DNA of 60,115 nucleotides, filler included, from Dugesia japonica (lineage: Eukaryota): the NCBI GenBank assembly GCA_001938525.1. It is 6 parts of 6 records of this genome, joined end to end, with 100 filler letters (N's around TTAATTAATTAA, not from the genome) between each part and the next. Parts side by side here need not be neighbours in the genome. Positions count along the whole stretch, not along the records: positions 42,171 to 51,215 come from MQRL01647745.1; 5 more parts are not named here. The stretch is one strand, 5' to 3'. Shown here one piece after another: positions 4,651-59,123 of the stretch. Position numbers and translations under genes: made by a program. Position 1 is the stretch's first letter, and the number at the start of each line of letters is the position of its first letter. The notes beneath the pieces are model-generated. The model saw only the letters and a list, made by a program, of their open reading frames with translations, was not told the origin of the DNA and did no database searches.

Positions 4651-4654
4651 TCAA

Positions 4655-10124: not shown

Positions 10125-11475
10125 CTATATTGTTGCATTAGATTCACTTGATGTTGAGTTTGGTTTTGAGAGTTTTTTTATCTGGTTCCTTAATTTATCG
10201 TTTTTGTCCATCATTTTTCCAATGGCTTGATTGTTTCTCGATTTATTATTGTAATTTGTATTGGAATTGCCAAAGCCAGATCTCTGGTTATTCTGAAAAC
10301 AGTTTCTACTCGTGTGACCCGGTTTGTTGCATGTATAACACACTGGTGATTTTGTGATGAAGCAGTTTTGAGCTTTATGTCCTTGTTTCTGACAATTTGT
10401 ACATATCGTTGCTGATCTGCAATCTCTAGCATAATGACCAAGTTTACCACAGTTATAACATGTAATTCCCTGGGGTTGCTGCCACGATCCTTGTCTATTT
10501 CCTCCACTTGATCTTATATTAGTATTTGATTGTCGCGGTGCGGGTCTATTCTGACCTGGTGACAGCCCTCTCAATAATGGTTGAGTTCTGTCGGGTATAA
10601 AATCTGCAACTTTTGGTTCGCTTTTCCCTTCCTCTTTTTGCTCTTCAATTTTAAAAACACTAACTTGTTTTTTATTCATTTCCACTTTATGGGCTACCAT
10701 CGCCGCGTTTATTGCCATATCTACCGTTGTAGGTTGAGATAGATTTACCCATTTTTTCACTTCTGCATTTCTAAGTCCTTTAATAAAGATACCGAGCACT
10801 GTGGGATCATCCAACTTGTCCTTTGTTGCCAATTTGCCGAGTTTACGCAATTCTGTTGCGTATGCCTGAAAAGTTTCATCTTTTAGTTGTCTTCGCCCCA
10901 CAAACTCTTGAATTTCTTGTCCTTACAACATTAATGGCTTGAAGTTTTAAAACAACACTTTCTAAGCTTTTTCTCAGGTATTAACGGGATCTTGACGATC
11001 ATTAATTTTATCCCAATAAATAGTTTTAGCTGAATGCTTTAAATATAGAGGTAATCTATCTGCTGCTCTCTTGTCGCTCCATTGACAGGCTTGTATATGT
11101 ATCCCATATGCCGCAATAAGACTCCGAACTTGATTCCGAGTACTGGCGAATTCTACTTGACGCTCTTGTCGTAGTTATACTATCGGTAACTGATTTAGAT
11201 TCGTCTAAACTTTCTAGATCAATGTCTTCTAATCAATCGGCTCTTGAGTTGTTTGGTTCGGTTATGGTATCAAATTCTCCTGGTACGTCGTCGCTAGACG
11301 GGAATGAATTGGGTGATTTGGATGCTGAAATTGATAGAGATTGATTAAATTGTCGGGATGGCCTGTTGTAGGAGACCGATCGTTTTATTTTAGCTGAATT
11401 GGGTCGTTTACTTACAAATGACCTTCTATTTTCGGTACTTTCTCGAAAATTGTATCGGGATTCTTGATTATCTAT
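10125..11475 (-). pseudogene. gag: Gag (capsid + three CCHC zinc knuckles), decayed
   Basis: CA N-terminus QWSDKRAADRLPLYLKHSAKTIYW; MHR-like RQLKDETFQAYATEL..FIKGL; knuckles CYNCGKLGHYARDC, CTNCQKQGHKAQNC and CYTCNKPGHTSRNC. The presumed start reads ATA at 11475. Stops and frameshifts lie upstream of 10901. Confidence 0.9.
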
Positions 11476-12151
11476 GATTGTTTATTTGGTTGGTTCGTAG
11501 ATTGATTGGTTTATCGAATCTTGGAATATTGGAATGTTGATTGTTTTGGTTTCTGAAATTAAATAATATGGCCCTACGGCTTCTGCACGCATTCAAATAT
11601 TATTATCGTATTCATTAATTGACTACTGTATCTACTGTTATCTATTGATTGCTACCTCTAATCTCCCATTACTACTCTACAATACTTTAACACAATTTAT
11701 TTCTATTACATTAGCAGAAATTTTACAAACTTTACTATTATTCACTCATCATTTATTATACATATGCAACATTTTAGCAATTCAAAATTTATTAAACGTA
11801 CGCAGCACTTTCATTCAACAGGAGTATTAATTTCTATATTTACGATTCCATTTTGCTTTATTCAATTTCAGGTAATATTTAATAACTTCTATTTCATTTT
11901 AAAAATTCAGTTAAATTCACATCTACTATCCAAATTCACTAATCCCAAAGACTTCAACCCAAAGATTATTAACTCCACTCAATTTCTTGTTATTGTTATT
12001 ATCATTTCAAAATTTCCTCCGTTGAGTTCATTAATACATTCTATTTCTTCCTCCTGGAACATTCCCGCCTATTCTTGGCAAATCTTCATCAATGAAAGTT
12101 TTCTAATTTAGTGAAAACTTCAACTAGCTCATTACACAATTGATTACATCT

Positions 12152-12940: not shown

Positions 12941-15900
12941 TATCACTTTCGACCAGGTCTTCCTTAGTTCTCTTTTCGGTGGCCAACCGACAAAGTATCC
13001 GGAACGAATTACTGGTAATTAACTCGCTACTCCAATATTTGCTTCAATATATCTCATTTAATTCCATTATCCTCTTTCATTCAAATAAATTTAAATCTTT
13101 TTCGTACTAGTTTCTTTGCTTTGAACACTCTCTCTAGGTAGACGGTAGTCTATTATTTCAGCTCCAGCTGGGCGACAATTTCGATCCTCAATTTACACTA
13201 ATACTTCAATATCTCCATGCTTGAGTCAGTTGACAGTCTATTTCAATTCAGCTTCAACCGCTTGCTAATGTGAAGGCTCTCAGTCAGAATCCCATGATCC
13301 AGCTGATGTGTAACTACGACGCTATCCACGATCGCATTACCAAATTAATTTTCTAAAAATAAACAACACTACTGATGCCACACTTGGGGCTAACTATTGT
13401 ACCATCTTGTCAACACTGAGTCCTCCGATCGCAAGACACCACGGACAATTTGCGACCTTGTCCTACTGGGATGTTTCACCCTAAATCTAAAACTCTGTAG
13501 AGCTACGGGCAGTTAGATGTAGGAGTGAGTGTCAAGGCGCACTCACGCCAACCGAACGCCATAAGTGGTCAGCTTAATAGATGCTATGCTCATTGCCGGC
13601 TCCTACGTTGATTCCCCTGGAATTCGTGAGTTTATCTCGCTTGGACTAAACTCCATTCTCCCGGCGTGGAAGTCAGACAAAGTATCCAACTTCAGAGATC
13701 GGTACTCCTTATTCGAAGCGTTGAAGCTCGAAGTCCGTCCAAGCATATCCACGGAAGATCTTTCACTCCAATATCCACTTCAAAGATTCCTGTCCCTAGG
13801 TCAATAACAATTTCAATCATTTCAGTCATTAGACGATTATTGCAGCTGTCCCCTCAAAGTTGATCAGGTTTTTAGTTCGAGCTTACTAATCGCGGGCCCT
13901 ATTTTCCAAAATGACATCCATCATTATGACGTCTTTTCCTCGGGTGCTTTCACATATCTATGGTTACGCTCGAAATTGTCTCTCTCCAAATCACCAGCAT
14001 AAAATTCTCCAACAACACGTAAATCTAAATTCCAAATAGTTATCTCATATGAAACCCTCAAATAAATCACAATTAATATCAGTTCACTCTCGAACATTTA
14101 ATTTCCAATAATAGTCCACTACTCGATTATTGTTTCATATGACTCCGTAACCATAGAACCCCACTGTTACACCTCGTCCTCATTTCCGTTCATTTGTCGA
14201 TCGAATTCTTGGTTACCACTCACTTGGGTGGTCTCCCTGTCTTGAATGTCCGATACCCATCCTGCACACTTGATAAGGTATAGCAATTTCTTCCCCAAAT
14301 AAATTTCATTGATTAACCACATTAAAATATTTCAAATCCTTAGTCGCCTCCTCTTCTCCGCAAATTCCATTAGTTTATCGTCAATCAAAATCACCCTCTC
14401 ATCATTTTTTAATCTCATTACTTTCAGTTTCTATTACTCCATTAGCGGTACCATGTCATTACTACTCAAAGTATTCATTATTCATCAAAAACATTTTGCA
14501 TCTCGTCACCACTCTATTCCACCAAATTCAATCGTCATAACATTAATTACCATTGTCACTTATTATTCATCTTCAATTTATGCTTCGATTATTAGCTCAT
14601 CTCGTTTACCTAAATATTAATATTCATTCTAATTCATTACCACCTCCCGACAGGATACGTCTCGATACATTAATTTACTCCCAATATTCATTGTTTCACT
14701 TTCTCGATGGAGGCTTTAATCTCAATAATTCTTACTCTGCTTTAATATCCTTCCTTTGATTTATAGTCGTTATCGCTTCTACTTTATTAGTCATCTCTTC
14801 ACTAATTTATAATTTATTACTCGCTTCGTTGACTCTTATTTATTCATTCATTGCTGCATATCACTTTCAATTACACTTCTGTTACTATATTATTACTGTC
14901 ATGTGCGTCAATTTAATTTTCTTCGTTTTGGTTCTCATTTCTTGATGATAACGCGATATATATTTCATGATCAGCTGCACTAGCTCGAAATTGATGCTTT
15001 ACGCAATCTACTTGCTCTAATCATTATTTATTTATCGATTTATTCAATACATGATGCTAGAATTGAGGCGATCCGAATGAGAAGAGTTGCGAGATTCTCC
15101 TTCTAACCTCACCACTCTGCGCATTCGAAATCACTCCATCTTTAATAATCATTTATTTATTGTAACATTTACTCGCTCAATTGAAGCTCCATAACTTTTA
15201 ATCCGGAGATGCAGTGCGTGCGAGTCTGGATCTCTCTCCCACACACACTTCATTCCCAAATCACTTGATATACTAATATTTCTACATATTCATTTTATCA
15301 GTTAATTAGCCGATGTTCAATAAGGGTCGATCACCATACCTGGTGAGCGGTAGCTCTCATGACGCACTTTCTCGTACCAGCGATTTGGCTCACACTATCT
15401 TATACTCATTATTTACCATGGTAATTTTATTTACTTATCATTATTACGTCTCTACACAGTTATTTCGATTCTCGGTCCGAACAAGGTGAGCAGTCCTATG
15501 ATACCTCTGCATCTCATACAATCCTCATCATGGTGGTGCATATATCATGTTATATCCCTATTCTCGGCGTGCAATTATCAGATTGTTTTCAATTATTCTC
15601 CTCATCGGTTATTTGAATGCGTGCAATGTTCCTAAATCTCTGAATGTCTGTATCACTCATATTAGGTACTATACTACTCCATACCTCTGCTGTACTTTAA
15701 TTTTACTTTAATGATTATTATTTACCACTGGATTTTAAACTATCTAATTAAAAAATAAAAATAAAATTTTGAAATATTTTCAATATTTACTTTGTTTTAA
15801 TACTTTAAATTATAACATCTAGACACAGGTTAATTTCAAATTATTTATAAATTAATACAATACAATAATAATATAATCCTAATAATAAGCAATTAAAGAT

Positions 15901-17039: not shown

Positions 17040-17360
17040 TTATTCGGCATCCAAATCGATCGTCGACTCCGTAATTGTGCTTGTTTCCTCTGGGGATAGG
17101 TAATTGAGCCATAATGTCCGCAGTGAAACGAACATGGAACCTTCTCGATCCGCATAAGTTTTAATTATATCGGCCATTAATCGATTGGCATGCTGAAGTG
17201 ACAGTTCCTTCTTCTTGATTTGATTATATTTGGAGGTCGATTTCAAGACCTGCCCCTTCAACCTCAAGATTTCATTTTTTAACTCTCGACGCTCCTCTTT
17301 CCATCTCTGTGGAGCGGCTTCCTCTCCTCTCGACAGCTTGGTATCTTTCGATTTATTCAC
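17040..17360 (-). CDS. LTR-encoded coiled-coil protein (gene C homolog), 106 aa
   Basis: Ungapped alignment to ORFs 42767..43057 and 47283..47531 (RW, RxK, SK, E, IIxxYxDRE conserved). Begins TTATTAG|TG; AATAAA overlaps the stop. Confidence 0.7.
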   Translation of the reverse strand: MNKSKDTKLSRGEEAAPQRWKEERRELKNEILRLKGQVLKSTSKYNQIKKKELSLQHANRLMADIIKTYADREGSMFVSLRTLWLNYLSPEETSTITESTIDLDAE

Positions 17361-17616: not shown

Positions 17617-18105
17617 TTAATAAAAAAAATATGAAAAAAAACAAGACCAAAAGCCCGTAATACCCAACATGTATTGATCCTTGGTCGCAAAGGACTCCAC
17701 TTTTACGATTACTAACTGCTGGACATCGCTCGACTCCTGGGAGCTTTCAGATGATAGTGCCAAAACCTGATCTTCGAGTTGACCCAATAATAAATTATGT
17801 TCTATCTGCTGCCGGATCAAGTTCTCCGTACTTTCCTTAATGGCCTGTCTTCACTGCCAGAGTCTATCATTTTCCTGTCGATATAACTGTAGTTTCGACT
17901 GGGTATCCATGAGCTGCTGTTTCATGCTTCGGAATTTAGTGACCAAATGACCTCCCTTATGTAGTAACTCCTTTTTTTCTTTTTCATTATTAGCTTTCTG
18001 TTCATCCAACAATTCAACGGTGTTCCTCCAGGGGATCCAAAACGTACCTTCATCCATGTCATTGGATAACACCAAGGGAATATGTGCATTGAAGTAAGTT
18101 GTCAT
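17617..18105 (-). pseudogene. LTR-encoded coiled-coil ORF (gene E) with one internal stop
   Basis: ORFs 17851..18105 and 17617..17820 share a frame and are separated by one TGA. The ATG is 3 nt after a TTTTTCTTATAG acceptor. Confidence 0.55.
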
Positions 18106-21100
18106 TGTCTATAAGAAAAATATTAACAATTATTTGAATTTCCGTCATTTATTTTAAACATATTCTTAAGTAACGAATTGAAAATAAGCTGCAATTAAAA
18201 CATCAACGTATCTTTGGCCTGCGGCCTATAGTCTCTGGTTCCACCGCCTCTATAGTACGAACCAGAGAAGATGTCCACCAAAGCAGCCATCTTTCCTAGT
18301 TCCCACTAATTCGAAGCTTTAACAAGAACTCCTTATCAGTCAGTTTCCTAAGAAATGCAAAATACAGGCAAATTGTAATTCCATAATTCTCGATATCTTT
18401 AATTTCTTTTAACGATCCGGGAGTACGAGTTGGCTGGCCGACGGGCACTCGAATTTAGGGATAGATTATACAAGATTTACCATATTAATATTAATGAAAT
18501 AAATATATTTTACTTTTAATTGTTCGGCTTCTTTTTAACTGGCAAAATTATCTTGCAAAACTTGATATATAATAGTAGCAATTATAACTTTTTCACAAAA
18601 TTTGATATATAATAGTAACGAATTCTAATTGAAAAATTTTTAATCACAAAATTATATGGTAATTTTTCTGACCAATTTTTCAGTGCAAACGAGTTTTATT
18701 TCTCGTTTGCACCCCAACTTGGAATTGGTTATTTGCTTACCAATNGTAGTCGTTTTTCGTCTAATCCGGATTTCTGATTGGTTGTTGTGTTGTTGTGCAT
18801 CTTTTCATTTTCATCTCAGTGAGAGATTGTGCACACAAACTTTATTTACTTCAAAATTATTCAGCAGGTCACCTCATATGACCTCTGAATAATCGGATGT
18901 TAATGTTACTAAGTCCTGGTTTAGCGCGAAATGATTCAGCTAATCTGTTGATGATTTTTCTTCAGCTAAACAAGGCATGATGACTGGACCAGACTTAATT
19001 AAATATAATATTATAATATTAAACGCTATACAGCGTTATTATAATAATGAAATTGGGTCGCAGAGACCTCTTTAATAACTTATTATANNNNNNNNNNNNN
19101 NNNNNNNNNNNNNNNNNNNNNNNNNNNNNNNTTAATTAATTAANNNNNNNNNNNNNNNNNNNNNNNNNNNNNNNNNNNNNNNNNNNNAAAAATGTCAATT
19201 TTAATACGTTCTTTAATTAATTTGTCAGATTTTTGAATTAAATGCAAAAACATGTTTAGGAAAATTAAAAAAATATTTAACTCTTTTAATGAATGCAATG
19301 CAAATTATATTTATTTTTTGATCAATTTACCGCTTACATCAGTTCAAATTCTCTAATGTCATTACTGTAGAATTTCATGATGTACTGATATTTAGAAAAC
19401 ATTATACCATTGAATTATTTTCATTTACATTTTTTATAATTCTATTTATNNNNNNNNNNNNNNNNNNNNNNNNNNNNNNNNNNNNNNNNNNNNNNNNNNN
19501 NNNNNNGTTCCTATAATAAAAAATATATCAATTTTATTAAATAACTATAATAATTTTTAACTGAAAATTACTTCACTTTTATTCATAATCTATTTTCACA
19601 TCATATTTATTACCACGCTTTTGTTTAAATGTGTCACATTTATTGATTTTATTAAAATTGATATTATACTACCTTTTTTACGTTTCATATTGATTTGTAA
19701 TATAATAATCTAATGAATATAAGTAAGAATTTCATAATTGCAAAAGATTTGTTTTAAATTATAAAAAATTAAAAATATTTTCAAAAAATACGAAAATAAA
19801 CTGAGGCTTAAATCAAAAAACAAGGTTTCAAAAAAATGTTTTTTTTTAAAATTTTTATTAAAGCTACAAAAACTTTTTCAAATAAACTTTATTGTTATAA
19901 ACGATTATTGTTACTTGATTTGAATTGTGTTAGATGAGTCTACAATGCTCACTGTGGAATTTNNNNNNNNNNNNNNNNNNNNNNNNNNNNNNNNNNNNNN
20001 NNNNNNNNNNNNNNNNNNNNNNNNNNNNNNNNNNNNNNNNNNNNNNNNNNNAATTTGAGATCCAGCTTTAATCTTAAAAGTTTTTTTTTATTATTTATTA
20101 ATTTCAAACTTTATCTTATTTTACTTAATTTATTTGAAAATAATTTCATATTTTTAAAATTAAATTTCGTTTTAATATATAAAATTCAAATCTCAAAAAA
20201 TTTGACTGTTCAATAATTATTTTCTTACAGTTTGTATCGTGTGTAAAACTTCATATATTGTTGGAACTTAATCAATTAAACGAACATGAGATGTGGAGTT
20301 ACAGATTTCAATAAATTTGTATTTGTTCTATAATAATCCAGCATTTCATTTATGATAAATTCGATATAAAAAAAACATCAATTCAGAAATAACTGCATTT
20401 ATTAATTTTTATTTCAATGTTTTTTTCAAATAACAATAAATTTATTAATAATTATAATTAAATTATAAATTCAAACTAAATTTTTATATTTTGTATCAAA
20501 TAATTTTTCGTTAAAATATGAAATATTGCTTATTAAATTAAAACAATACACATTGTTAGTTTTAAACATTAAAATATTTGCTAGACTTTCCGTGGCGACT
20601 TTTCCATTAACGAGCATTTAGTTTTTATAGTGACAATCTCGTATAGAAGAATCAATAAATAATATTTAATTTAATAATAACAATTTGAATGAAAACAATA
20701 TAATTATAAATTAAAATAATTATGATTATAATCTATTTTTTCTAAGCTTTATCTTGCTCTCCAAAAATATATAAAAGTTCCTTTAGTCATAAAAAGGATT
20801 AATCTTAGTTCAAAATTTCAAAAAGTGCAAGTATGCAATCACAGCAAGCACACAATAAAAACAAATAATGAAATATATTTTTCAAACATTTAAATTTTAT
20901 TTTAATTATTTATTATTTAGTTTTTGTTTGACAATAACAATTATTGCGAGAATAATTGTTTGGCGTAACCATTGATCGTTTTTTTTGGACGAAGACAAAG
21001 TCAAAAATCAGAATTATCAAAAAAAAAATTTTATTCGAAGTTTTTATTTTTTACTTAATTATTTATCATTTATTTGTTGTAAATTTCATTTTTTTAAAAT

Positions 21101-35040: not shown

Positions 35041-35279
35041 AAAGTATATGAAAGTGATTTCAAAAGGAAGTAGCCAAAATACAGAGCTCCACCAATAGAG
35101 GAGATGATTGGAGTCATCTAATGATAAATGAATTGATTGATTATCCTCAAATAGTCGAAAAGTGGAATGATATCGGAAAAATTACTTTGGTAGTATGTAG
35201 ATTCTAAAGAAGGAAAATTTTAAGTATAAAAATAAAATGGATTAGAACAATTGAAGCAGAACAGAAAACGAATACTTCG

Positions 35280-37050: not shown

Positions 37051-37997
37051 AAGAGTAAAGATTAAAAAATGAGTATTGAACACAATCGTAAATGAAGATA
37101 ATTAAACATTTCTATAGAAAAAATTGCACTTAAGAAAATATGAATACTGGATAACAAATAATAAGTAATGCAAGAAATTCACAAATAATTGTGTCACGCA
37201 TGAGTTGAAAATGTTTATACATATATGAAAGAAAAATACATTCGAGAAATTTTGTGGAGCCAAATATAAAAAATTATTCGTAAGTAAGTAGAAATTTGCT
37301 CAATGAGTAAGCTCAGAGTTCAGAATAATTGTTCTATACAAAAGTGGTTCAGTATCACTTATCAAATTTTGAGCTTGTGTGTATGACGCCTTATTGGTCA
37401 ATCAGATTGCAGGAAAGTTGTTACTAAAATAATAAGGGAATTTATGTGTATGACCTTGAAATGTGTATCTCATTTCACACCAATGAAACCGTAGGAAAAG
37501 TTATGTGTATGAAATTATTTTAGAAAGAATGAGTCATATTTAATAAACTATGATCCATAATTTAAGGAACAGAATTTATTTATACGTTTTTAGCGAGTTT
37601 AATTTATTGGTTTGAATAAGGTTTAATTTTTAAAATTTTTTGAAAATCTTTTTAAAAGAAATTTGAAAAAATTAAAAGTTAAAAATGAAAAATATTAACC
37701 AATTATAATTGTTTTACAGTTAAAATTATTTCCAGAATAATTGTTGGAAGCAACCATTAAATGTTTTTCAGAATTCATTAAAATAAAAACTTTGATCNNN
37801 NNNNNNNNNNNNNNNNNNNNNNNNNNNNNNNNNNNNNNNNNNNNNNNTCTTCGTCATGAATTGACTTTGACAAAAATTCAACTCCTGACGAAGACTTAGT
37901 CGAAAATCCGAATTATTATCAAAAACAAAAAATTTGATAAAAGCTTTTATTTTAATCAATAATAATTTGTTAAAGTAAATTGATATTTGGTCTAATC

Positions 37998-40090: not shown

Positions 40091-41236
<1,146 letters not shown>

Positions 41237-42070: not shown

Positions 42071-42278
42071 NNNNNNNNNNNNNNNNNNNNNNNNNNNNNN
42101 NNNNNNNNNNNNNNTTAATTAATTAANNNNNNNNNNNNNNNNNNNNNNNNNNNNNNNNNNNNNNNNNNNNAACTTTATGCAAGGTTCACACTCGTACACC
42201 TTTAATTCGCGTTCTTTGCTTTCTCTATTTCACAGTCAATTAATAAATCGTTAAAAATAATTTATATTTTATAATATA

Positions 42279-42641
42279 CTACATGAGATCCATAACATCT
42301 GGGTCTAACCACTGGGTGGGATCGTCAGCTAAAAAATTAAACGACGCTTCGTCGTCCTGGTCATTTCATTGTACCCAGGACGCATTACCAAGCTGGCGAG
42401 ATAAATCTGCAATATATCTCTTCAAAATATCGATTTTTTTCTGAAGAAGCTGTTTCGTCTGCTCGGCTAGATCTCCCTGCTTCTAAACGATGAGGTCTAG
42501 TCTTTTTATGAGTCTATTACGTTGTGCGAGATATTTGAGTAGAGCCCGTTCAGTTTGTCGTTTGAGGTAACGTTCTAGTAACAACTTAGTGATTAGTCGA
42601 TGACAACGACGTAGACTTGTCGGAAATCTAATTTGTGGCAT
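42279..42641 (-). pseudogene. LTR gene D (120 aa basic helical protein with acidic tail), two internal stops
   Basis: MPQIRFPTSLRRCHRLITKLLLERYLKRQTERALL..KIDILKRYIADL..DEASFNFLADDPTQWLD; homolog at 46759-47114. Confidence 0.75.
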
Positions 42642-42766
42642 TAAATAAGATTTATCATTAAATAAGTTAATCTCTTATAAGAGGTGATAATTAGCTAAGT
42701 AAATAATTTGAAAAGAAGAATTTAATTACACAAAGGAAAATCATTTATTTATAAAACCGAGAAAAA

Positions 42767-43121
42767 TTAAGGCCATGATGTCTGAATACCCTTATCTATC
42801 ATTAAATGTTCGAGGGGCATCGCAGTTTTTACTTTCAAAATTTCCTGGACCAGTTTATTCTCACGGTCTTGGTAGGACCGAATAATCTCTGTGAAAAATT
42901 CTATTTGAGCCTTCCACACTCTCTCTTGGGTGTGAGATGCTTTGGCTTTGGATTTGAACGCCATGCACTTATTTTTGTATCGCTTCACCTTACTATTGGC
43001 GTTCGCATTATCAGCTTCCCAGCGACGTTTAGCGAGCTTGTAAACGTCACAGGTCATCTCTAAGTCCCCAATGGACTCGCGGACTCTCTTGGGGCAGCTG
43101 CGCTATAAAAGGAGGAATACA
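42767..43121 (-). CDS. LTR gene C, coiled-coil protein (main ORF 42767..43057; 5' extension frameshifted)
   Basis: 47/82 aa identical to 47283..47531 by manual count; acceptor TTCTAG|TG at 43122/43121; AATAAA just downstream. Confidence 0.75.
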
Positions 43122-43360
43122 CTAGAATATAGAACATTAAACGAAATCTACGAAAACTAGATAAAAGAAGTGGCGAAGTGCACAAAACACCTACTCACAT
43201 ACGGTGATATTCATTCGAAACTCACTAATCATCAAATATACTTTTTCTTTTAACGAAAATTAATTTAACTGAGAAATAAAATTGAACTAAACGGATTTAT
43301 TATTAAACCTTAAAAAACTATTTATTCAGATTATAGTGAGACCATAAATGACATCGACTA

Positions 43361-43708
43361 TTACTGGTCGGTCTCCATGTTGACTATTGGTTCTATAATT
43401 TCCGAAATTTCTGCACCCGTGGGTTCTCTAATACCCCAGAGCAAGTTCGTAATAAAAGCTTGTACTGCTGGGGGCGGGACTGAATGTTGATAGCGGAATG
43501 GAGTTACGTGATTATGCACCGGTCCATTCCAATTCTGGTAATACTGTCGTTCCCCAAAATTCTGGATCCGTGCTACCATAATCTCTACTGGAGGTAGATT
43601 AGACTGGTCCAAAAGAATGCCCGCGTCTCGATTGTACGGGTTTATATGTCGTCGAAAAATCATACGACGTGTTCGTCGGTCGTTAACTCTTTCCCATACA
43701 AATTTCAT
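43361..43708 (-). CDS. LTR gene B, 115 aa, unknown function
   Basis: Intact ORF; DxRT..IFxR..NPYxRxAGxLxD and PP....AFI...LWxIR are conserved in 47777-48208. Confidence 0.75.
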   Translation of the reverse strand: MKFVWERVNDRRTRRMIFRRHINPYNRDAGILLDQSNLPPVEIMVARIQNFGERQYYQNWNGPVHNHVTPFRYQHSVPPPAVQAFITNLLWGIREPTGAEISEIIEPIVNMETDQ

Positions 43709-43865
43709 TAAATTTATTTGGTTCAGTAATAAATTGAAATTATAATCAATTTTAGCAATTTACTGACTAAGTTATTAAATGTGTGCTGTAAAAGAATTCA
43801 AAACTTTTAATCAAGACGTGTAATTTATATTTAACCTATATCAAAGATAAAACCAGATACGTCAG

Positions 43866-44051
43866 TCAATCTTCACTGTCTATATCGACAATACAACACA
43901 ATGGAAATAATTCGGCGAAGCATTGAAGATCCAGCTCATCAGGTGTAGGGACACAATCTGGGAAGAGAAGATGTGCGATTAACTGTTTTCGACGTATCCG
44001 CTTACGTTCTTGGCGAATAACGGTTAATGCGTTGGTTAAGATGTTTGACAT
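43866..44051 (-). CDS. LTR gene A, 61 aa, unknown function
   Basis: IR..RK..R.KQL.AH.L and PxExDxxCFxExFP....VDxDxE are conserved in 48372-48579; ATG 4 nt after TTCAG. Confidence 0.7.
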   Translation of the reverse strand: MSNILTNALTVIRQERKRIRRKQLIAHLLFPDCVPTPDELDLQCFAELFPLCCIVDIDSED

Positions 44052-46298
44052 TAATCTGAATGGAAATTATTAATGATAATAATCAATTCTCTTATTAATT
44101 GAATGTGAACGGGTGTTGATAATAAATATTTGGGTTTAATCTTCCTCGGGCAGTTAATCATACTCGTAACAATCAAATAATACTAGGCTACCCAATTAAC
44201 AATAGTTCTGATAATAGCAGTGGAGTTTATGAGATTATCGTGTTCCCTATCATCGTTGTCATAGAACAATATTAACAATTAAATTCTTAACAATAATGCC
44301 AGCAGAACCATCTAACCAAAAGAAAATATCACGCATGGTTAATCGGAATAGTGATATGCTAGCATCAATAGAACAATAATTAAATTCCTCCAGTTAACTA
44401 TCATAATAACAACAATAATAATAACATCATAGTGTTGGAATAACTCGTGCCAAAATCCCCGTAATAAAAACAAATGGTAACATTGGTCATGATAACAGAA
44501 TTGCTATATGTAAACAATTTATAGTAGTGTGTTCTTAATGATCGAGAAATCTCATCGCACAATGACAACCAAGTCCCATTCCGAAAGTCATGCTTATCTA
44601 CGTAATATTTGTTAGCGCTTATATGGGTTGGTTATCTAGTATGCATGCAGGGACACTATGAAGCATATACACGCACTTCACGTGCCTGTGTGTCGTTGAT
44701 TAGATGTGAGCAATTGACAACTTTAGACACTGATTAAAACCTGTGAAATTGAAAATTATCAAGACAAAAAGGAATTGTCGATATTTGAGGTTGCGGAAAA
44801 TGGATTGCTGGTAAGTATGCTATGTTCATTGCATAGAGCTTTCTTGGTTCGAGATTAAATCAGTTATAAATTCCTTGAGTCAGTTATTAACCATCTCTCA
44901 CCTAGGACATTTATGTCGATAATTTGTCAGTTACTTGCATTTGTGAGGTTTACAAAGGGAAGTTGCTGTTTCATGCCACAATGTCGCTCACTTTCTGGGT
45001 TGAGAATACGAGTAAACAATGAATGTGTGATAAATGAAAATTGATCAAATATTTAAACATCGTCAGCGGCCATCATGGCAGATTATTATCTCTTTTTATC
45101 GTAATATTAAAAATCATTTTTTATTAAATTTTATATTTATTAGCATAACTAACAATTTATATGAGGATTATTTTCTACATTCACATTTAATGATCAATAC
45201 ATATTCATTCGTTTATATTATGTCTATTTTCTAAATTACATTTAACGACAAAGACATATCTAATAATTAGCATTAAGATTATTTCTCAATTCACAAAAGT
45301 ATACTATATTATTGTCAAATTCTGCAACGAGGAAGTCCACTGACAGATTTTCCTTNNNNNNNNNNNNNNNNNNNNNNNNNNNNNNNNNNNNNNNNNNNNN
45401 NNNNNNNNNNNNNNNNNNNNNNNNNNNNNNNNNNNNNNNNNNNNNNNNNNNNNNNNNNNNNNNNNNNNNNNNNNNNNNNNNNNNNNNNNNNNNNNNNNNN
45501 NNNNNNNNNNNNNNNNNNNNNNNNNNNNNNNNNNNNNNNNNNNNNNNNNNNNNNNNACGCAGATGCTTAATTCACAATGATTAGATAATAGTTAATTTTC
45601 TGCCTAAAACTAGGGGGCTTAAATAGCATTTCTGATGACACCCCGATTTGCTCTGCATTGGCCAGCTATTTTTAATTCCAATTTTCTGTCTCTGATTGGT
45701 GATGATGCCAATTTTCAGAAGCCTTTGCAGATTTTTAGTACTCGTATTGGCCGTTATTTTTAGACCATCAGGTGAGATTTGGTTCTAATTTTTGAACCTT
45801 CGTCAAAACCCTCCCAATGGTGTTTCAATTTTCTGGATACAAAATCCCGATGCTCTAATACATTGTCTTCTCAAATTTTCTTGCACTGAGCTTCTATGAG
45901 TTTTCTGAGCCAAGATATTCGTAAAAAACGGATTTTTGACTAATTTTGACTTATTTTTTATTTAAAATTAATTAATGTTTTCTGATAATTAATTATTTTC
46001 CAGGAATGTTTTTCTTGTTTTTTATTTTTAATTTCATTATTTCTTTTAATTATTGTAATTGATATGGTCGGATTTGTTGACCCAAGATCTTCATCTCCAT
46101 TTCCTTTATATTTTTTATCTTTTATTAATTTAGCCCTACTGATTATTCTTAATTACTTTTCTTGTGGCTTTGACTATGTAACTTCATCGTAACTATGTTG
46201 TTCTTGATTGACTGTCCCTTCGGACCCCTTCCTTCATCATTTCTCCTTCTTGTGCCCTTGGCTTGATTTTTCTTTATAGACTGGGGGTTTCACCCTAA

Positions 46299-46300
<2 letters not shown>

Positions 46301-46360
<60 letters not shown>

Positions 46361-46464
46361 NNNNNNNNNNNNNNNNNNNNNNNNNNNNNNNNNNNNNNNN
46401 NNNNNNNNNNNNNNNNNNNNNNNNNNNNNNNNNNNNNNNNNNNNNNNNNNNNNNNNNNNNNNNN

Positions 46465-46517
<53 letters not shown>
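46301..46517. repeat. (TTA)n/(AAT)n microsatellite between two LTR ends
   Basis: Pure TTA repeats on both sides of an N run (46361-46464). Confidence 0.97.
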
Positions 46518-46518
<1 letters not shown>

Positions 46519-46758
46519 GTTGGGGTTCCGCCTGAGTTTGTGGTAGAAAAACGATGGCTGGGGAAAAACAGCCCTCACAGGACCCGTCCAAAAATTTAAT
46601 CGAAAGTCCCTCGTTTTGATTTTCATTGTAGGGCGGTTGACCTCCAACACTTACTTGAGGTACATACCCTTTAGTTTTTTGTTTCATTAGATAAAACCAA
46701 ACCATTGATAAAACCAAAACCAAAATTAAAACGTTGTTAAAAACAAAATTTTATTCTA

Positions 46759-47114
46759 TTAAACCGACGGCCCCTGATCAAGCCATTCGGAGGATTCATC
46801 GTCCATCAAATCAAATGCGGCCTCATCAACTTCAATGGCCAGTGCGCCCATTGCTCAATCTCTAGGCGAGTAGCTAGATCGGCGATATATTGTTTGAGGA
46901 AAGCGATTTTATTGATGAGAATCTTTTGAGCGCGCTTAATTTAACTCTTCTTCTTTCTTAACGATCAAACCAAGCCTTTTAATTAACCGATCACATTGCG
47001 TCAAGTGATGGAGCAAAGCGCGTTTAGTTTGCCGTTTTAGATGGCATTCCAGCAGGAGTTTCTGGATAAGTCTATGGGATCTGCGCAGACTAGTAGGGAA
47101 CCGAATACGTGGCA
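46759..47114 (-). pseudogene. LTR gene D, second copy (frameshifted)
   Basis: TTTCAG|TG-PRIRFPTSLRRSHRLIQKLLLECHLKRQTKRALL..KIAFLKQYIADL..DEAAFDLMDDESSEWLD; AATAAA near 46750. Confidence 0.75.
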
Positions 47115-47240
47115 CTGAAATAAAGAACGATAATTATCGTTGAAAAATGAAACAAAATTAACTTCAAAATAAATAAGACAACTAGAAAAAACACAGTTAA
47201 ATTAAGATAAAAAGCTTTTATTTACAAATCAACGGTGAAG

Positions 47241-47599
47241 TCACTGTCGTGAGGTTTGGATGCCTTTGTTGACCATCAAAGGTTAGAGGGGTATGGTCTT
47301 TCTTAGCAGCAAAATATCAGATATCAGTTTATTCTCACGGTCATGGAGGGACTGGGTGACTTCGGTGAAGGACTCAACCTGCGCTTTCCATACTCTCTCC
47401 TGCTCATTAGAGGTTTTGATCTCTTTCCGAAAATCAATATACTTTGCCTTGTATCTTTTTACCTTTGCGTCAGCATTAGCTACATCAGTCTCCCTTCTGC
47501 GTTTTGCAAGGCGATAGGGATCCCAGGTCATGTCCTGGTCCTCATTGGCCTCGCGTACTTTCTAAGTTGGAGCTGTGGAACGATTTAGAGAAGAATGCA
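47241..47599 (-). pseudogene. LTR gene C, second copy (two internal stops)
   Basis: TTACAG|TG-HSSLNRSTAPT*KVRE..MTWDPYRLAKRR..IPL*PLMVNKGIQTS. Confidence 0.75.
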
Positions 47600-47776
47600 C
47601 TGTAAATAATATCATCAAAAAACACCTGAACCTTAACGACTTATACTGTATGATAACTATGACAGAATGATTATTGCATTATAATTACTATAGAAGCCGA
47701 AAATATTACAAGTAAAACATAAATAAAACACAGGTACACGAAGTTAGTATTCTCTATTAAGCAATTTAGAAAATCA

Positions 47777-48208
47777 TTAGGTGGCAGATTCATTGTCTCC
47801 AATAACGTTAGAATTTTCGCAGCTTTCACCTTCCTCTTCGTTACGGATGTTCCAAAGATTGTCATGTATGAAGGCTGTTAAGTTCCAGGGAGGAGAAATA
47901 TGTGTGGCCGTGACACCTACAACTGATGGGCCTTCGTGCCAAGAACGAGTAATATGCAGTTCACCACTTGAGTCTAACTGGGTAGATAGGGTCGAATAAT
48001 ATACGGCGCGCCTACGGTCGGGGCCACTTAAAGCTTAGTATGCCTGTCGCTCACATGCGTCATATTCTCTCTCTTCTTCTGCAATCTCAACTGACACGTT
48101 CGCTCGATCTACCAGAACCCCGGCATTTCGATCATATGGGTTTTTGTACCTTTTGAAAATAGTACTTTTGGTTCTCTTATCCAATAAAACCTCTCATTTA
48201 TGCTCCAT
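47777..48208 (-). pseudogene. LTR gene B, second copy
   Basis: AACAG|AA-MEHK*EVLLDKRTKSTIFKRYKNPYDRNAGVLVD..HISPPWNLTAFIHDNLWNIR. Confidence 0.72.
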
Positions 48209-48371
48209 TTCTGTTAATGTTAAAATCATAATATTACTAAATAAAACGAAAAAGTATTTTTATTTAAAGATGTAGGAATCCATTAACGCTACTGAATTAG
48301 CATTTATTTTGCTACAATAAAATAAAACAATGAATTTTAATGATCAAAAATTGTCGCATAGGTTTATTGGC

Positions 48372-48579
48372 TTAGATATACAGAGGAATTATCAGGAACC
48401 ATTCTTCCTCATCCAAGTCAACTTGATATTTCGAAGGAAACATCTCGGTGAAACACTTTATGTCGGTTTCGTATGGATGTTCAACCTTACCCCGGGACAA
48501 AATGTGTGCTAATAATTGTTTTAGTCGAGTCGACTTACGCTGCTTTCGGATCAGACGTCTTTCTTAATTCGATTTGCAT
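48372..48579 (-). pseudogene. LTR gene A, second copy (frameshift near start)
   Basis: TTTAG|GAT-MQIELRKT/LIRKQRKSTRLKQLLAHILSRGKVEHPYETDIKCFTEMFPSKYQVDLDEE; AATAAA at 48363-48368. Confidence 0.7.
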
Positions 48580-49312
48580 ATCCTAAATAATATAAAGGTT
48601 AAAATCGGTTTTGAGCCGGTTCTTAATTATGCAACCCCCTCCCCCTGAAATTAAGTTAATCGGGACAAAATAAATAAAAATCTTAACTAAGAATTTGACT
48701 GCCTTCTTAATGTAATTGACGTTCCGGTAGTTAGTGGTAACCGATTTGACCTTACTTGGCACTCTATTGTTAATAATTAGGATTGGAACAGGGTAGTGAC
48801 AATCAGCAACATTATTAGTGCTCCTCAAGACCACAGCAACTATGGCGGCCAAAACTCTTATGAAGGGTAAGAATTTAAAAATAATGATATGGCTATCATA
48901 ATGATAATAGGTTTGATGATAATGATATTAATGCCAGCAATAAATAATATGAACGAACCGCTTATGATTACAGATGATGTTTTAATAAATGGAGGTAATA
49001 AAATTGATACTAGTAGCAACCATAAATAACCTACTACCATTGCAAAAAAAATAAAATGAATAATAATGACGACGATGATACCACCCATAGACTCGAATAT
49101 AATAATAAAATGCTTAAATAAAATGATGGTAAGTATGAATTTAAATATATTTAAATTCATGTAACTTGACTAATAAATATAATTAATAATCGTACCACTG
49201 ATCATAATTAAGAAAGGTATCATATTATTTATAATTTCTTCAATGGCTACAATACTAAGTCTAATTACGACTCTATTAATTGCGAGGAACCACTCATGAT
49301 TTATCTGGGAGC

Positions 49313-49347
49313 AAAACACAAACACAAACACAAACACAAACACAAAC
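49313..49347. repeat. (AAACAC)n hexamer tract
   Basis: About five to six visible copies. Confidence 0.85.
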
Positions 49348-51315
49348 TCGTTATTCCATTTTAATCAGATTGAGACTATTACTTGTTGACGGCACTCGTG
49401 TTGTTACCGATCCTGCTGGCGATGTTAAGTGTATTTAACTATGACTCGGTAGGTGTGCATCGCTATGACGCGGATGGAGAGAAAAAGTATCAACACCCCA
49501 TTTGGAGTAATGAATTTTAATATGACACATCTCTTGCTTGGAATCTATCAGTTACAAAATGAAAATCGATTTTAGACTAATTATATCTAGTGTTTAATTT
49601 CATTAATGTGGAATTTTCTTTATTAATGTTGTGATGCGGAATTAGACATTACCGAAAAAATTTCTATTGGCGTGGATGTATCATGGAATTATTAAATGGA
49701 ATTTGATATATCTGCAGTAGCATCTCTGCCTGGAACTCAGTTTTTTGCAGAATTTAATCGAATGGTTATTCATTGGTTATTACTAAATTATTATACTCAT
49801 TTCGTTATCTTTTTTCTAAAATTATTAACGGTGTAAATGTGATGGAATTTAATGTAACATACATTATTAATTTCACGATTTCTCATTTGAGCGGCTACCA
49901 ACTAATGTATCGATAAGTTGCATAAGAAATAATTTCATAAAATAAAATTTGTTTCTTTCCTATAATTGTCATTCATTAAAATTAAACATAAATTGATCTG
50001 AATTAAGGAAATATATTTATTGCATTTAAAATTCGTATCACAAAATAATTAACATCAAAATTACATTTTAAGTGTCTAGTTCAAGGTTCCTGTAACGGGA
50101 TTGTCGTAAAATTCAGCTTCTTGTTTTTCTGAATTAGCAATTTAAATTACGTTCCGCAAAAGTGTTATCGAGGTTTATTCTTGCTTTATCGATGATTATC
50201 CAACTAGTGATACGAGCTTTCCAACTTTTTAAGCTAAAATTTTCTTCCAAATTAAATTTTGTTATTTCCAGCAGTACAATGAAATTTTCTTTTTATAGAG
50301 TTTTCTGACCACGAGAATTAAATTAGTACCGTAATGGCATACCTATAATTTTTTTCTAAATTATAAGGGTTTATATACCCTTTTTCGATGCATCTCGACA
50401 CCATCGTCATTGGTTTCTATTTTTAATTTATGTTTTCTTGTTTTTATTGGTGATGGTGCCAATTCTTAGATTTTTTCTACGATTCTTTCATCTACCATTG
50501 GTGCCTATTTTTAGGGTACCATGTAGTTTTCTTGTCTTTGTCTTATTTTCTTTTTCTGGCTCCTTATTGGCCCACTCTTTAAATCCTTGTAGGGGTCTTC
50601 CTGATTGTGATAAGATTTTTTTATTGCAAAATCCTATTGCCCCTTGACATTTTCTTTCCAGATTTTCTCTTATTGATTCTTATGAGGGGAGTTATTCCCG
50701 AATAACTGATTTTGGCTTAATTTTAATTTATTTTCTCGATGAAATTAATTAATATTCCTTTATTAATTAATTATTATTTTCTTGATTATTTTTTTTTAAT
50801 AATCATAATTTTCTTAATTAATCGCGTGATTTGACCAATATTCAGTCATCTGATGCGTTCATTCTGCATTTTATCTTTTCTACTCGTCTTCCGTATTGAG
50901 GTAATTTTTTTATTGCATTTATTATGTTTAAACAAAGAATTACCAATGAAAACATGTTAATAACATAAAATAACACATTTTTAACCAATAAAATAAATAT
51001 ATACAAAGTTTACTTATCAAAACCTAGTATAAAAACGAATACGTGTAATAAACTTTCATTACTTTACTATGCAAAAACCTATTACTGTAACAAAAGATAC
51101 TGTTATGTCTATTATAGTAGATTACGGAAAACCTACTGAACTTCATGGAATACAAATGAAATTCTTTAAGAGATCAATAATTTATACGTTTCAGGTACTT
51201 TAGTTTTTTAATTTTNNNNNNNNNNNNNNNNNNNNNNNNNNNNNNNNNNNNNNNNNNNNTTAATTAATTAANNNNNNNNNNNNNNNNNNNNNNNNNNNNN
51301 NNNNNNNNNNNNNNN

Positions 51316-52750
51316 ATGTATGATATTGGCCGAGAATAAAGATTTTAACGGATTGAAAAAAGATCAAGATGAGGACGAAGAAGTGAAAAAATTCTTAGAA
51401 TATATATCTCACTTTGATTTTAGTAAAGTAGAGTGTAACAAAGCGATGAAGGAACATTGAAAGAAACGAGGCGGTAGATACACAGTGGTGAACGAATGAT
51501 TAATGATGTAGGAAGGTGATCAACTGTTATTGGTAATACCAAAATGTAGAAAAGCAAAAATACTGGAACAGTATCATAATGGAGTTCTCGGAGGTCATAT
51601 GTCAGCAAAGAAAACGGTATCAAAATTACGAGCAAAATATTATTGGCCTCATATTACAACATTTGTGAGAGAATGGATTAGTAAATGCGAAATTTGTGCG
51701 GCCAGAAAAGGAACTGGAAAGAAAATTAAAGTTCCGTTACAACCGATACCAGTGCCAGCGGCACCAATGGATATAATTGCAAAGGACATAATCGGACCAT
51801 TGCCACCAACGGACAGTGGAAAGGTATATATTTTGACAGTAGTGGATTATTTATCCAAATTTCCCGAGGCTTTTGCATTAAAAGATCAGAAAGCGTCGAC
51901 CATTGCTAGAGTATTAGTCGATAAACTATTCAGTCGATACGGCCCACCTAAAAAGATATTGACAGATCAAGGAAAGAATTTCATGAGTTAATTAATGAAA
52001 GAAGTGACTAGTTATTTTAATATTCATAAAGTGCGGACATTGGCGTATCATCCATAAACGGATAGGATGACAGAGCGATTTAATCAGACATTGACTAGAA
52101 TGTTATCGAGTTACGCGACCAGATCCCATAGAGATTGGGATAAGCATTTGAATTTATGTTTATTTGCATATAGAATGGGAGAACATCCCGCAACAAAAGC
52201 TTCACCTTTTAAACTAATGTACGGCCGAGAATGTTATATGCCAATAGATTTGGAGCATCAGCCACCGATATCGCAGTACATGGATGAGGATGATTACGTT
52301 ACCGGCATGAAAGAGATAATGCAAGAAATATGGAGATTGGCAGCATTAAATGCAAAATTTAATCAAGAGAGTTATAAGGAATTGTATGATCGAGATACAA
52401 AACCCCATATGTTCAAAAAGGGTGATATGGTATTAATTAATACACCAACAATCGAAATTAGAACCACGGAGAAATTAAAACGACCAAACAGAGGACCATA
52501 TTTAGTTTTAGAGACAACTGCAACAAATCTAAAAGTAAAGGAAGTGGGAAAACCACTTAAAAAGCCAAGTATTGTTCATGTATCGAGATGCAAACTAGCA
52601 GCAATCGAGGACGACAATGATAAAGAAAGCGATGAGGAGACTGTGGAAAGAGTGAGGCGAGTCTCAGTCAAACCAAAAATGGAGGATAAAGAGAAGGAGG
52701 TTAAACAAAAGTTGAAAAAGACAAAAAGAGTTAGTTTTAAAACGAGATAA
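51316..52750 (+). pseudogene. Ty3/Gypsy integrase (H2C2 zinc domain, DDE core, GPY/F module) with in-frame stops
   Basis: YHNGVLGGH..CEIC; KDIIGPLP..VVDYLSKF..ILTDQG..YHP*TDRMTERFN; GPYLV. Confidence 0.95.
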
Positions 52751-55700
52751 ATTGATGAGGAGAGTCGATATCCGATTAGATCCAGACAACAAATAATGAT
52801 GATGAACACGAAAACCAGCAAAACTAAAAGTAATATGGCTGAAATTCAAGAGGAGGAAAGTGTTAAACAAGAAGAGCGGTGTATATTTTGTAAGGCGACA
52901 AAACCAGATTCGGTACCATTAAACAAAGAGCTAATAGGAAAATCATGTTATCATTGCTTGTGAGGTATGTGTGATGATGTAGCAGAGTTAGTGGAGAATT
53001 TGAGTCGCGAATCTTCCCAGGAGGGAAGAGAAAAGTTTATCATGAACAAATTATCATGCGAATTATGTGGTCAGACATCAGTAAAATTACCAAGTGTCAC
53101 AAGTGAATACCAACAGTGGTGCTGAAGTTGTTTGAGCTTCGCACAAAGAATTTCTACGACAGAGATTAGGTGTATACATAAACACATGCAAGGGTTGACA
53201 GCCGCAAATCCTATTCAACAGAATATAGAACCAGCGTTGAATGAGATTGTGCAACAATATGAGGTAGATAATAATTTGGATATCTTTGAGAATGGCAGTG
53301 CCATGATGAGACAATATTACTCGTCTATAACGGAAGGAGTGACTCAAGGGAGTCGAACATGTAGTAATTCACAATGCGGACAGTCCGTCGAGAGAGGATG
53401 TCGCTTGAGTAATCTGGAAAAGCAGATATACGAGCCGTGTCTGTTGGTGATTCAAATAGTTACCAGAAAAAAGCAAGATCGGTGGATCTTAAACAGGAGC
53501 ATTAACGCTGAGAAAAACCTCAGGACTGTGGACGTCAAATCGAGTACTTTTAATTTGGAGAAGTTAGTCGTGCGATGCAAAATATGTTACAGTATCAGTC
53601 CTGTTGCAGTACCCTTGGATAAGATGCTCATGAGTAAAGCATGTTTCCAATGTTTACAATCGACTTATGACAACTTAACGTTGATGGAGAAGGGTGTCAG
53701 TCGAGAGTCAAAACGAGCGGATAGAGAGGGACGCAAGGATCCCCCATGTGAGCAGTGTAATGCAATATCGTGCAATATAAAAATAGACGCAGGACTATTC
53801 AAATAGTGGTGTAATCACTGTTTACGAAAGGTTAAAGAAATTATTAACCTTGAATTGGAGTGTGTACATGTACATAGGAGAGGATCGACAGCAGCCAACC
53901 CCATTAGGCAGTACATAGAATTAACTCATGAGGAAATTCTACAAAAATTTCAATTAAATGATCAATTAAATATTTATGAAAATAGACGAGATATGCTTAA
54001 TCAATATTATTCTTCAGTGACAGACGACTGGAAGAAAGGGAATCGAAAATGCGACAATCCGAGATGCGGAAGATATAACCTCAAAGGATTTATTCCCCAA
54101 AGCGGATGGAGACCATTATGCCAACCATGTCTGAGCGGTGTTCAGATAGTTACGACGAAGAATCAGGAGTATTGGATCTACAAGAATCAGCCGACATTTA
54201 AGGAAAACGACGAGATCGAACCAACAGTATGCGATAAATGTAGAGCATGGAGGCCTACCAGATGCCTAATCATTGTGACGGATATCATGAAGTTATGTAA
54301 ACAATGTTACCAAAGTGCGAAAAGTAGTGTTAAACGATCATTATTACAAGTCAAACGCAGAGGCCAATAGTTATTGGAAACGGGAGTGTGAGATAGTGCA
54401 GGTTGTGTCAGTTGTGTGAATGAAAAAGTCCAAGTGAAGTTGCCAGTACTGGAAACGGTATACAAAGAATTGTGTTTGGAATGCGCAATCGATATGCGTG
54501 GTCAATTGCAAGATGCAAAAAATGTGTTACATGGGGCCAAAAAACAGTTAAAGCTAAGCCAAACCACGCCAGTTAAAGGAGAACCTTTGACATCAATAGT
54601 ACGGAAGGAACGGTGGAGTGGGACTAAGAGTCAGATGCGAGGGATCGACGAGGACGTCGATTTTTTAAACAGGGGGAGTGATTGGTCTGAATTGTTGTTC
54701 AATGAGCGAATACGACGAATACACGAAGAATTAATTGATAAAAAACAAATAATGAAAGAGATGAGAGAGAGCAATAGTACATACTATGCTTTAAAGAAAC
54801 AGAACTTCCAATTAACGATATCAGAGGAGGATAAACGAACAATAAAAAATACGTGGGAAGCCTACAGCAAGCGCCAAGAAGAATACGAAGGACAAATAAA
54901 TAAAGAGGAATATAAAGCAGCGCAAGCCAAGCGGATGGCAGAGACGCAACAATTTATAAAAGAAAATGAAGGGCGAGGAAACCCTGATGTGGAACAATTA
55001 AAAAATGCGGTACAGTGGGTACAAACATTCGAACAAGTGGTGGAGAAATTAGAAAAAGATAAACAAGAGATTCAACAAAAAGCGGAGAAGCAACAAGAAN
55101 NNNNNNNNNNNNNNNNNNNNNNNNNNNNNNNNNNNNNNNNNNNNNNNNNGGAGAAATTAGAAAAAGATAAACAAGAGATTCAACAAAAAGCGGAGAAGCA
55201 ACAAGAAACGTTGGAGAGATTAAATAAAAAGAAAGCCCAAATGATAGAATCTCGTTCATGTCTGACGCAGAAACTAAATGTAATACAGAAAAACAACAAT
55301 GAACTGAAAAATTGGCCTAGTACATCGAACAAAAGTGAAAATCGTAGAAAGAGGGATAGAAAGAATAAAAATAAAAAATGGCAAGTTCGAAGCGCTACTA
55401 TGGAAATTGTGTATTCTTATTCAGATAACGATAATAGTGAAAAGGGTCACGATGCGCCAGAGGAAGTAATAAAAAGTGAATTTAGTGGACAACCGCCGCC
55501 GGCGGATGATGATGAGTCAACCAACTTCAGTAAATTAAAGGACGATTTATGGCACCAGTTGTTGACAAAGCGAGTAAAGTGCGAAGCAGAGAATAGTCAG
55601 AGAATCAAAACGGAAGGGGACGAAATATTTACTGCAGAAGCAATAGAAATGATACGAGCACACCAGGTAGGTGAAGAGGACATGCCAGCAGCAGTACTAG

Positions 55701-58935: not shown

Positions 58936-59123
58936 GGAGATTAGGGAGAGCAAAGTTGTAAATAAAGGTACAAAATTTAGTTTTGAAGTGGCTCGAAATG
59001 TAAAGTAGGGCATAGTTAAGTAAATTGAAATTAAAGTACCGTATAATTGAATAAATTTGATTTTGGATCACCATAGTGTTATCGTAGTATTTATTTAGTA
59101 AAATAGAACAAAAACAGATAACA

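Follow-up and report, generated by a model that had tools for sequence, protein, structure and literature searches.

The long terminal repeats (LTRs) of retroelements are normally non-coding, with single-gene exceptions such as sag of mouse mammary tumor virus (MMTV) and nef of human immunodeficiency virus (HIV); sag and the bel2 gene of foamy virus are accessory genes that lie within or overlap the LTR. Giant elements of planarians can have very long LTRs, and that of Burro is approximately 5 kb. We analyzed a window of 60,115 nt (the whole stretch of DNA studied here) from the Dugesia japonica assembly GCA_001938525.1, which consists of six record parts joined and is AT-rich and gapped, with many retroelement remnants, an adenylate kinase gene, and an open reading frame (ORF) encoding PH and SH2 domains. 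Base composition, (AAT)n tracts, and the anatomy of the elements also point to a planarian host. Two diverged units on record MQRL01647745.1 (positions 42,171 to 51,215) each carry four small ORFs, A to D, which the original prediction interpreted as a conserved accessory cassette encoded within giant LTRs. The results described below demonstrate that the coding cassette is real. The LTR identity of the units is likely, and we think it probable that they are giant Ty3/Gypsy LTRs whose accessory cassette is expressed by splicing.

A conserved coding cassette in two diverged units

Unit 1 runs on the minus strand from 46301 to 42171 or beyond (at least 4.1 kb), and unit 2, on the same strand, runs from approximately 50890 to 46518 (at least 4.4 kb). 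Each has one visible end, and the remaining two ends are lost or diverged. An N gap lies inside unit 1, and another lies in the (AAT)n microsatellite at 46302..46517 that separates the units. As predicted, the same four ORFs were present in both units in the identical order A-B-C-D, all on the minus strand. The stop-to-start spacers of units 1 and 2 measured 157 and 163 nt between A and B, 303 and 245 nt between B and the Met of C, and 125 and 128 nt between C and D, and thus did not keep to the range of 125 to 240 nt initially given. They had also been called unalignable, which held for two of the three when compared to shuffled sequences, while the C-D spacers aligned slightly better than shuffles, at a score reached by 10 of 500. 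Similarly, an AATAAA motif was found within 70 nt of five of the eight stop codons, in line with the claim that most ORFs are followed by one, but the excess over the background of 0.24 to 0.28 per 70 nt in host AT-rich DNA was modest (P of approximately 0.03, calculated by hand). It had been proposed that the units are large because they hold the cassette, but at 1.8 kb it covers less than half of the unit length and explains their size only in part.

The claim that the proteins are conserved despite near-saturated silent sites was borne out. For 315 codons aligned between units 1 and 2, with the pieces of broken genes aligned separately and stop codons dropped, the proportion of synonymous differences (pS) was 0.84, which is saturated, and the proportion of nonsynonymous differences (pN) was 0.30, with a pN/pS ratio of 0.29 to 0.42 by bootstrap. 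Identity at codon positions 1, 2, and 3 was 0.62, 0.77, and 0.37, respectively, and was 0.30 at the 57 fourfold sites. In the four regions tested, the annotated frame had the lowest pN/pS of the six possible frames, except for gene A, where the antisense mirror frame was approximately equal (0.41 versus 0.43). The two different codon strings quoted for the shared peptide IRFPTSLRR were found in the sequence, and gene C was identical at 55 of 94 positions, including the predicted 47 of 82 up to the unit 2 stop. Judged by these substitution patterns, the ORFs are real genes that were formerly under long purifying selection.

The four genes differ in their state of preservation, with five of the eight ORFs broken: all four in unit 2 and gene D in unit 1. 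Gene A is open in unit 1 (43866..44051, 61 amino acids [aa]), with an acceptor-like TTCAG 4 nt before its ATG, and has a frameshift near its start in unit 2 (48372..48579), where an acceptor-like TTTAG lies 3 nt before the ATG. Gene B is open in unit 1 (43361..43708, 115 aa) and has two stops in unit 2 (47777..48208), where it is 28 codons longer and an acceptor-like CAG lies 2 nt before the ATG. Gene C is open in unit 1 (42767..43057, 96 aa), basic, and likely to form a coiled coil, and has one stop in unit 2 (47244..47531); the similarity between the two copies extends approximately 10 codons upstream of the Met, and they share an acceptor-like site near 43121. Gene D was found to be approximately 120 codons long instead of the approximately 60 predicted and to be broken in both units. 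The unit 1 copy (42279..42641, 120 codons) has two stops, of which the first, like its ATG, is private to this copy, and the unit 2 copy (46759..47115) is frameshifted and begins at a TTTCAG directly followed by TG, with no in-frame Met upstream. Genes C and D contain 20 and 21 Lys plus Arg residues, respectively, making both basic, and no transmembrane stretch was found in any of the four proteins. A further open ORF of 100 aa, very hydrophobic, lies upstream of A in unit 2 (48858..49160, minus strand) and has no clear counterpart in unit 1; it is possibly a fifth cassette gene.

None of the four proteins had been recognized originally, and no homolog was found in the libraries searched. Gene C had none in 5.8 billion clusters or 1.84 billion representatives, an alignment search with gene B returned 60 candidates with none at an E value of 0.1 or better, and an atlas search carried out for genes A and B only gave no usable match. 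For all four genes, matches to Pfam were below threshold and those to PDB sequences all had E values of 0.012 or worse. Metagenome scans for genes C and D and a scan of viral sequences (IMG/VR) for gene C found nothing. The predicted structure of gene D consists of two long helices and a disordered acidic tail (predicted local distance difference test score [pLDDT] of 81, predicted template modeling score [pTM] of 0.40), for which Foldseek found no fold match, including in BFVD, and the model of gene B was unusable (pLDDT of 45). A CARD death-fold was considered for gene D due to a weak match to NOD1 (E of 0.62) and was rejected, since the model is not a six-helix bundle and there was no Foldseek match. 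An exact look-up found none of 10 proteins from the window, and since these collections lack exact copies even of its gag, integrase, and PH-SH2 proteins and seem not to include this genome, the blank searches are weak evidence of novelty. In the literature searched, no account of an LTR containing a cassette of several genes was found; Repbase and the original description of Burro lay outside this search and may bear on novelty.

The region from 42171 to 46310 was compared to four sequencing runs, run X1 and three RNA runs. Run X1 yielded 3,375 contigs that were placed on unit 1, mostly 85 to 95% alike, 2,563 of which had less than 95% identity. The median summed contig depth was 1,236 in eight coding bins versus 88 in nine middle bins, approximately 14 times higher, and was also high in the conserved block at the 5' end of the unit; summed depth is not copy number, and run X1 was found by means of this same sequence, both of which limit what it contributes to the LTR interpretation. 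The cassette family is dispersed and multicopy. Among 40 of 422 difference rows, 16 copy-private changes fell inside ORFs, and 12 of these 16 were at codon positions 1 or 2, a pattern which indicates that the unit 1 copy decayed neutrally after insertion. Such a combination, selection between families and neutral decay once a copy has inserted, marks a mobile element and not a host gene. That the ORFs are host or domesticated genes under selection at this locus would fit the strong purifying signal between the units but is scarcely credible, given five broken ORFs out of eight, private changes at all codon positions, multiple copies, and a near absence of RNA.

Candidate LTR structure, promoter, and splice signals

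Outside the genes, the only clear DNA similarity between units 1 and 2 is a 460-nt non-coding block at their 5' ends (45593..46052 in unit 1, minus strand), which is 61% identical to 50346-50820 in unit 2 (E of 2e-26) and is a candidate U3. At the end of this block, four CCAAT/ATTGG motifs and a TATA-like box occur at matched spacing in the two units (offsets of 4,751 to 4,752 nt). The cluster of unit 1 (45619..45750, minus strand) has CCAAT/ATTGG motifs at 45750, 45712, 45699, 45682, and 45661 and a TATA-like box at 45625, and that of unit 2 (50371..50501, minus strand) has them at 50501, 50463, 50450, and 50413, with a TATA box at 50377. Four or more CCAAT/ATTGG motifs within 150 nt were found in the 60-kb window only in these units and in a third, described below, and 3 of 300 shuffles reached this. 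The promoter-like block lies approximately 0.7 kb from the 5' end and points into the genes, which would place them downstream of the promoter; if the block is the LTR promoter, the genes belong to R-U5, whereas nef and sag lie in U3. The sense strands of both neighboring elements are A-rich, and so is the minus strand of the block.

The visible ends also resemble those of LTRs. Unit 1 begins with TGTTAGGG (46294..46301, minus strand) directly after (AAT)n, and the 3' tail of unit 2 (46518..46758, minus strand) has an AATAAA at 46755, 237 nt before its end, CCCCAACA at 46518, followed by (AAT)n and no primer-binding site (PBS). The 5' and 3' ends, which come from different units, thus give a TG...CA pair with a short inverted repeat, and an RNA polymerase II (Pol II) promoter and a polyadenylation (polyA) signal both occur within the repeat as predicted motifs. 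Both units abut (AAT)n, as solo LTRs would. A single (AAT)n tract, across its N gap, adjoins both of the diverged units, and the contig of the third unit begins TATAATAA; microsatellite-targeted integration is possible.

We propose that units 1 and 2 are solo or truncated LTRs from two distant families of giant Ty3/Gypsy retrotransposons. Each LTR would carry its cassette in an R-U5 of more than 3 kb, preceded by a short U3 of approximately 0.7 kb with the CCAAT boxes and TATA at its end. RNAs made from this promoter would have a leader exon joined by splicing to an acceptor before each gene and would end at nearby polyA sites, with splicing supplying gene D with a start codon or an N-terminal exon, whereas read-through past the last polyA site would yield genomic RNA. 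Acceptor-like sites stand at the start of most ORFs and fit this scheme: TTYAG lies no more than 4 nt before the ATG of gene A in both units, for which the chance is less than 0.02 per position. The original prediction of self-standing genes, each with an ATG and a polyA signal, failed for gene D, which is without its own start in most copies. Because D begins in unit 2 at TTTCAG and TG with no upstream Met, and the ATG in unit 1 is missing in contigs totaling a depth of 1,144 of 1,162, gene D likely depends either on a phase-1 exon further upstream or on a splice-made start codon like that of the env gene of gypsy.

A third unit provides the only link to gag. Unit 3 has a promoter-like cluster on the minus strand (18571..18781) with four CCAAT/ATTGG motifs (18781-18676) and TATATA at 18611 and 18571, followed on the same strand (17617..18448) by small ORFs x (18448-18296) and y (18105-17617, one stop) and by a 106-codon ORF (17040..17360, minus strand) that starts at TTAG directly followed by TG and may be a distant relative of gene C. 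Unit 3 lies upstream of a PBS-like TGGCG site (13546..13561, minus strand), of tandem repeats, and of a broken gag (10125..11592, minus strand) with a Ty3 capsid-like part and three CCHC knuckles, all on one contig and one strand. A stretch of 16 nt located 4 kb upstream of gag (15610..15625, minus strand; expected 5e-5) is perfectly complementary to the region where gag starts, and the inverted pair 11584-11599/15610-15625 covers the gag start codon. It is comparable to the U5-AUG helix of HIV-1 (PMC3794615), with an unusually long leader, and it would imply an RNA that reaches at least 2 kb upstream of the PBS-like site. In one reading, unit 3 is a 5.5-kb 5' LTR (19083-13562) with a long R-U5 and the cassette sense to gag. 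The tandem repeats, of approximately 91 nt, occupy 12150-12635 in the leader of the gag element, and after gag (8870-10012), a duplicated domain of unknown nature (9922-9764 versus 9247-9089, 30% identity) replaces the protease, as in giant polyproteins.

Multiple copies, ends of the LTR type, and the signature of a Pol II promoter favor the LTR assignment, but several observations weigh against it. No pair of units flanking gag-pol was seen in the window, and neither a PBS after unit 2, a polypurine tract before unit 1, nor a target-site duplication was found at the visible ends, where the flanks are (AAT)n or N gaps. An R-U5 of more than 3 kb would need a very long strong-stop DNA, for which we know of no precedent. 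AATAAA is depleted on neither strand, no acceptor-like site lies next to the ATG of B in unit 1, the stretch preceding C does not keep the same frame from one unit to the other, and no splice donor is conserved between them, with part of the unit 1 leader falling in a gap. The three RNA runs (10 to 14 million reads) gave 25, 32, and 18 reads, all partial and all below 95%, and no splice joints, so that RNA was near zero in the transcription check. Poly-T loose ends near 46009-46048 flanked a T-rich patch on either side and were regarded as artefacts. For unit 3, ORFs x and y have no detectable similarity to A, B, or D, and homology of the remaining ORF to gene C is weak: its tblastn E value was 6e-4 uncorrected, its profile E value was 0.076 (first versus 991 other ORFs), and its score was reached by 0 of 2,000 shuffles against the unit 1 copy of C and by 196 of 2,000 against the unit 2 copy. 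In addition, no tRNA matching the PBS-like site at 13561 was found in the supplements searched, the candidate ends ATAAGT..ACTTAT are unlike those of units 1 and 2, and unit 3 may instead be a nested insert ending at CTCAACA (16671), which 32 of 1,000 shuffles matched.

Alternative readings of the units

The LTRs could be read the other way, with the genes antisense in a long U3 and transcribed from an antisense or bidirectional CCAAT promoter, like hbz from the human T-cell leukemia retrovirus HTLV-1 and the antisense ORFs of Grande and RIRE2, for which precedents have been described (PMC7264820, PMC10186651). This arrangement would be mechanistically easier. It would give a conventional long U3 and short R-U5, and the genomic RNA would contain neither the acceptors nor the polyA sites. 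The unit ends are symmetric and so compatible with it, and an integrase lies on the plus strand after unit 2, across a gap. We nevertheless regard it as unlikely: the ORFs of unit 3 are sense to gag on their own contig, the terminal blocks of units 1 and 2 contain no plus-strand AATAAA and are A-rich on the minus strand, and no PBS was seen at the right end of unit 2.

The units could also belong to a separate mobile element that is not an LTR, either a non-autonomous DNA transposon with TG..CA ends or a fragment of a DNA virus or Polinton-like element. No gag-pol flanks units 1 and 2, each has a single visible end, and small co-oriented genes with AT-rich spacers resemble the gene blocks of DNA viruses. 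Within the units, however, no transposase or viral hallmark was found, gene C has no relative in IMG/VR, and gene D has no fold match in BFVD. The single promoter cluster per unit and the ATG-less ORF are better suited to a spliced Pol II unit, and unit 3 precedes a PBS-like site and gag, making such an element improbable here. A Penelope/Terminon reading is disfavored by the absence of any ribozyme or tRNA when the sequence was searched with Rfam and ARAGORN; folding of the terminal stretches was no better than that of shuffles.

Finally, the cassette could be an operon within the LTR that is resolved by spliced-leader trans-splicing. The succession of stop, AATAAA, T-rich tract, YAG, and start, with spacers of approximately 300 nt or less, is the pattern by which flatworm operons are recognized (PMC12582326), and the ATG codons of A and of B in unit 2 stand directly behind an acceptor. 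Flatworm spliced leaders end in ATG (PMC12582326), but a leader ATG joined at the D acceptor would be in the wrong frame and would open unrelated peptides of 16 and 26 residues instead of D, and we consider this explanation very unlikely.

Neighboring elements and comparison with known systems

Other features of the window were recorded alongside the units. Exons of a host adenylate kinase lie at 40160-41234 on the plus strand, so that units 1 and 2 are just downstream of it or intronic, in antisense orientation. The region 51316-60115 is the 3' half of a giant plus-strand Ty3/Gypsy element with an integrase 49% identical to protein P0001, a tandemly duplicated Cys-rich domain (52877-53518 versus 53573-54208), a long coiled-coil ORF, hydrophobic ORFs, and a small ORF at 59124; the integrase was its only Pfam domain above threshold. 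The stretch 50890-51215 had no similarity to the 3' region of this element beyond AT-richness. A single-exon ORF of 266 aa with PH and SH2 domains (2017-2817) is possibly a retrogene. Decayed, mutually similar remnants of mariner-like transposases were recognized by their motifs at 23100-24200 and 3690-3890, and three related, decayed pol remnants of ordinary Ty3/Gypsy elements lie at 4646-6226, 32875-33947, and 35200-37240.

Returning to the spliced giant LTR, it is possible, though tentative, that each LTR is an autonomous multi-gene transcription unit, in which U3 would drive an R-U5 of 3 to 5 kb containing at least four lineage-specific genes as alternative last exons, one of them with a splice-made start. 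Every solo LTR would spread this module, complete and expressible, and its proteins would control a genomic-RNA switch or act on silencing in stem cells. A leader crowded with acceptors and polyA sites would need a switch for producing genomic RNA, and C or D was guessed for this role: being basic and helical, they could be nuclear regulators of the choice between spliced and genomic RNA, like Rev or CERV, although we hold such a function for either protein to be rather doubtful. The main alternative is that the cassette proteins suppress host silencing; planarian PIWI proteins repress such elements in a tissue-specific manner (PMC8532177). If the proposal is correct, then LTRs, which are treated as non-coding apart from single-gene exceptions, would include a conserved multi-gene cassette, which would change the annotation of solo LTRs, thousands of which could carry expressible genes. 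It would also probe how far strong-stop reverse transcription can extend, and the cassette would supply four new protein families from such elements.

The units measure at least 4.1 and 4.4 kb, and the candidate LTR of unit 3 measures 5.5 kb, against approximately 5 kb for the Burro LTR; the link to a polyprotein is loose and comes from unit 3 only. Decayed fragments of Burro/GYPSM1 have been reported in D. japonica (PMC6431247). This element is described as giant, with long LTRs, a gag with three CCHC knuckles, tandem repeats, and accessory ORFs, an anatomy shared here by 8800-16000 and 51316-60115 (PMC6431247). The likeness is one of described anatomy, and the difference is that the accessory content of Burro/GYPSM1 is assigned to the polyprotein or to an internal ORF, with genes in the LTR going unmentioned (PMC6431247). 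Conserved extra ORFs with unknown or regulatory functions are likewise found in Ogre, Grande, RIRE2, and Retand (PMC7264820) and in HTLV-1 as hbz (PMC10186651), and the LTRs of Ogre are 1.9 to 6.5 kb long (PMC7264820). Cer1 of Caenorhabditis elegans provides the model for the role suggested for C or D, since this Ty3/Gypsy element uses a spliced mRNA to make its lineage-specific protein CERV, which is needed to export the unspliced genomic RNA (PMC10309623).

MMTV sag and foamy virus bel2 resemble the cassette genes in encoding small accessory proteins, in or overlapping an LTR, that are expressed by splicing. The same is reported for HIV nef (PMC10186651). Each of these three cases involves one gene, located in U3 upstream of the promoter, whereas the units described here carry four genes that are apparently downstream of a promoter-like block, and a solo LTR arranged in this way would keep its promoter and its genes together.

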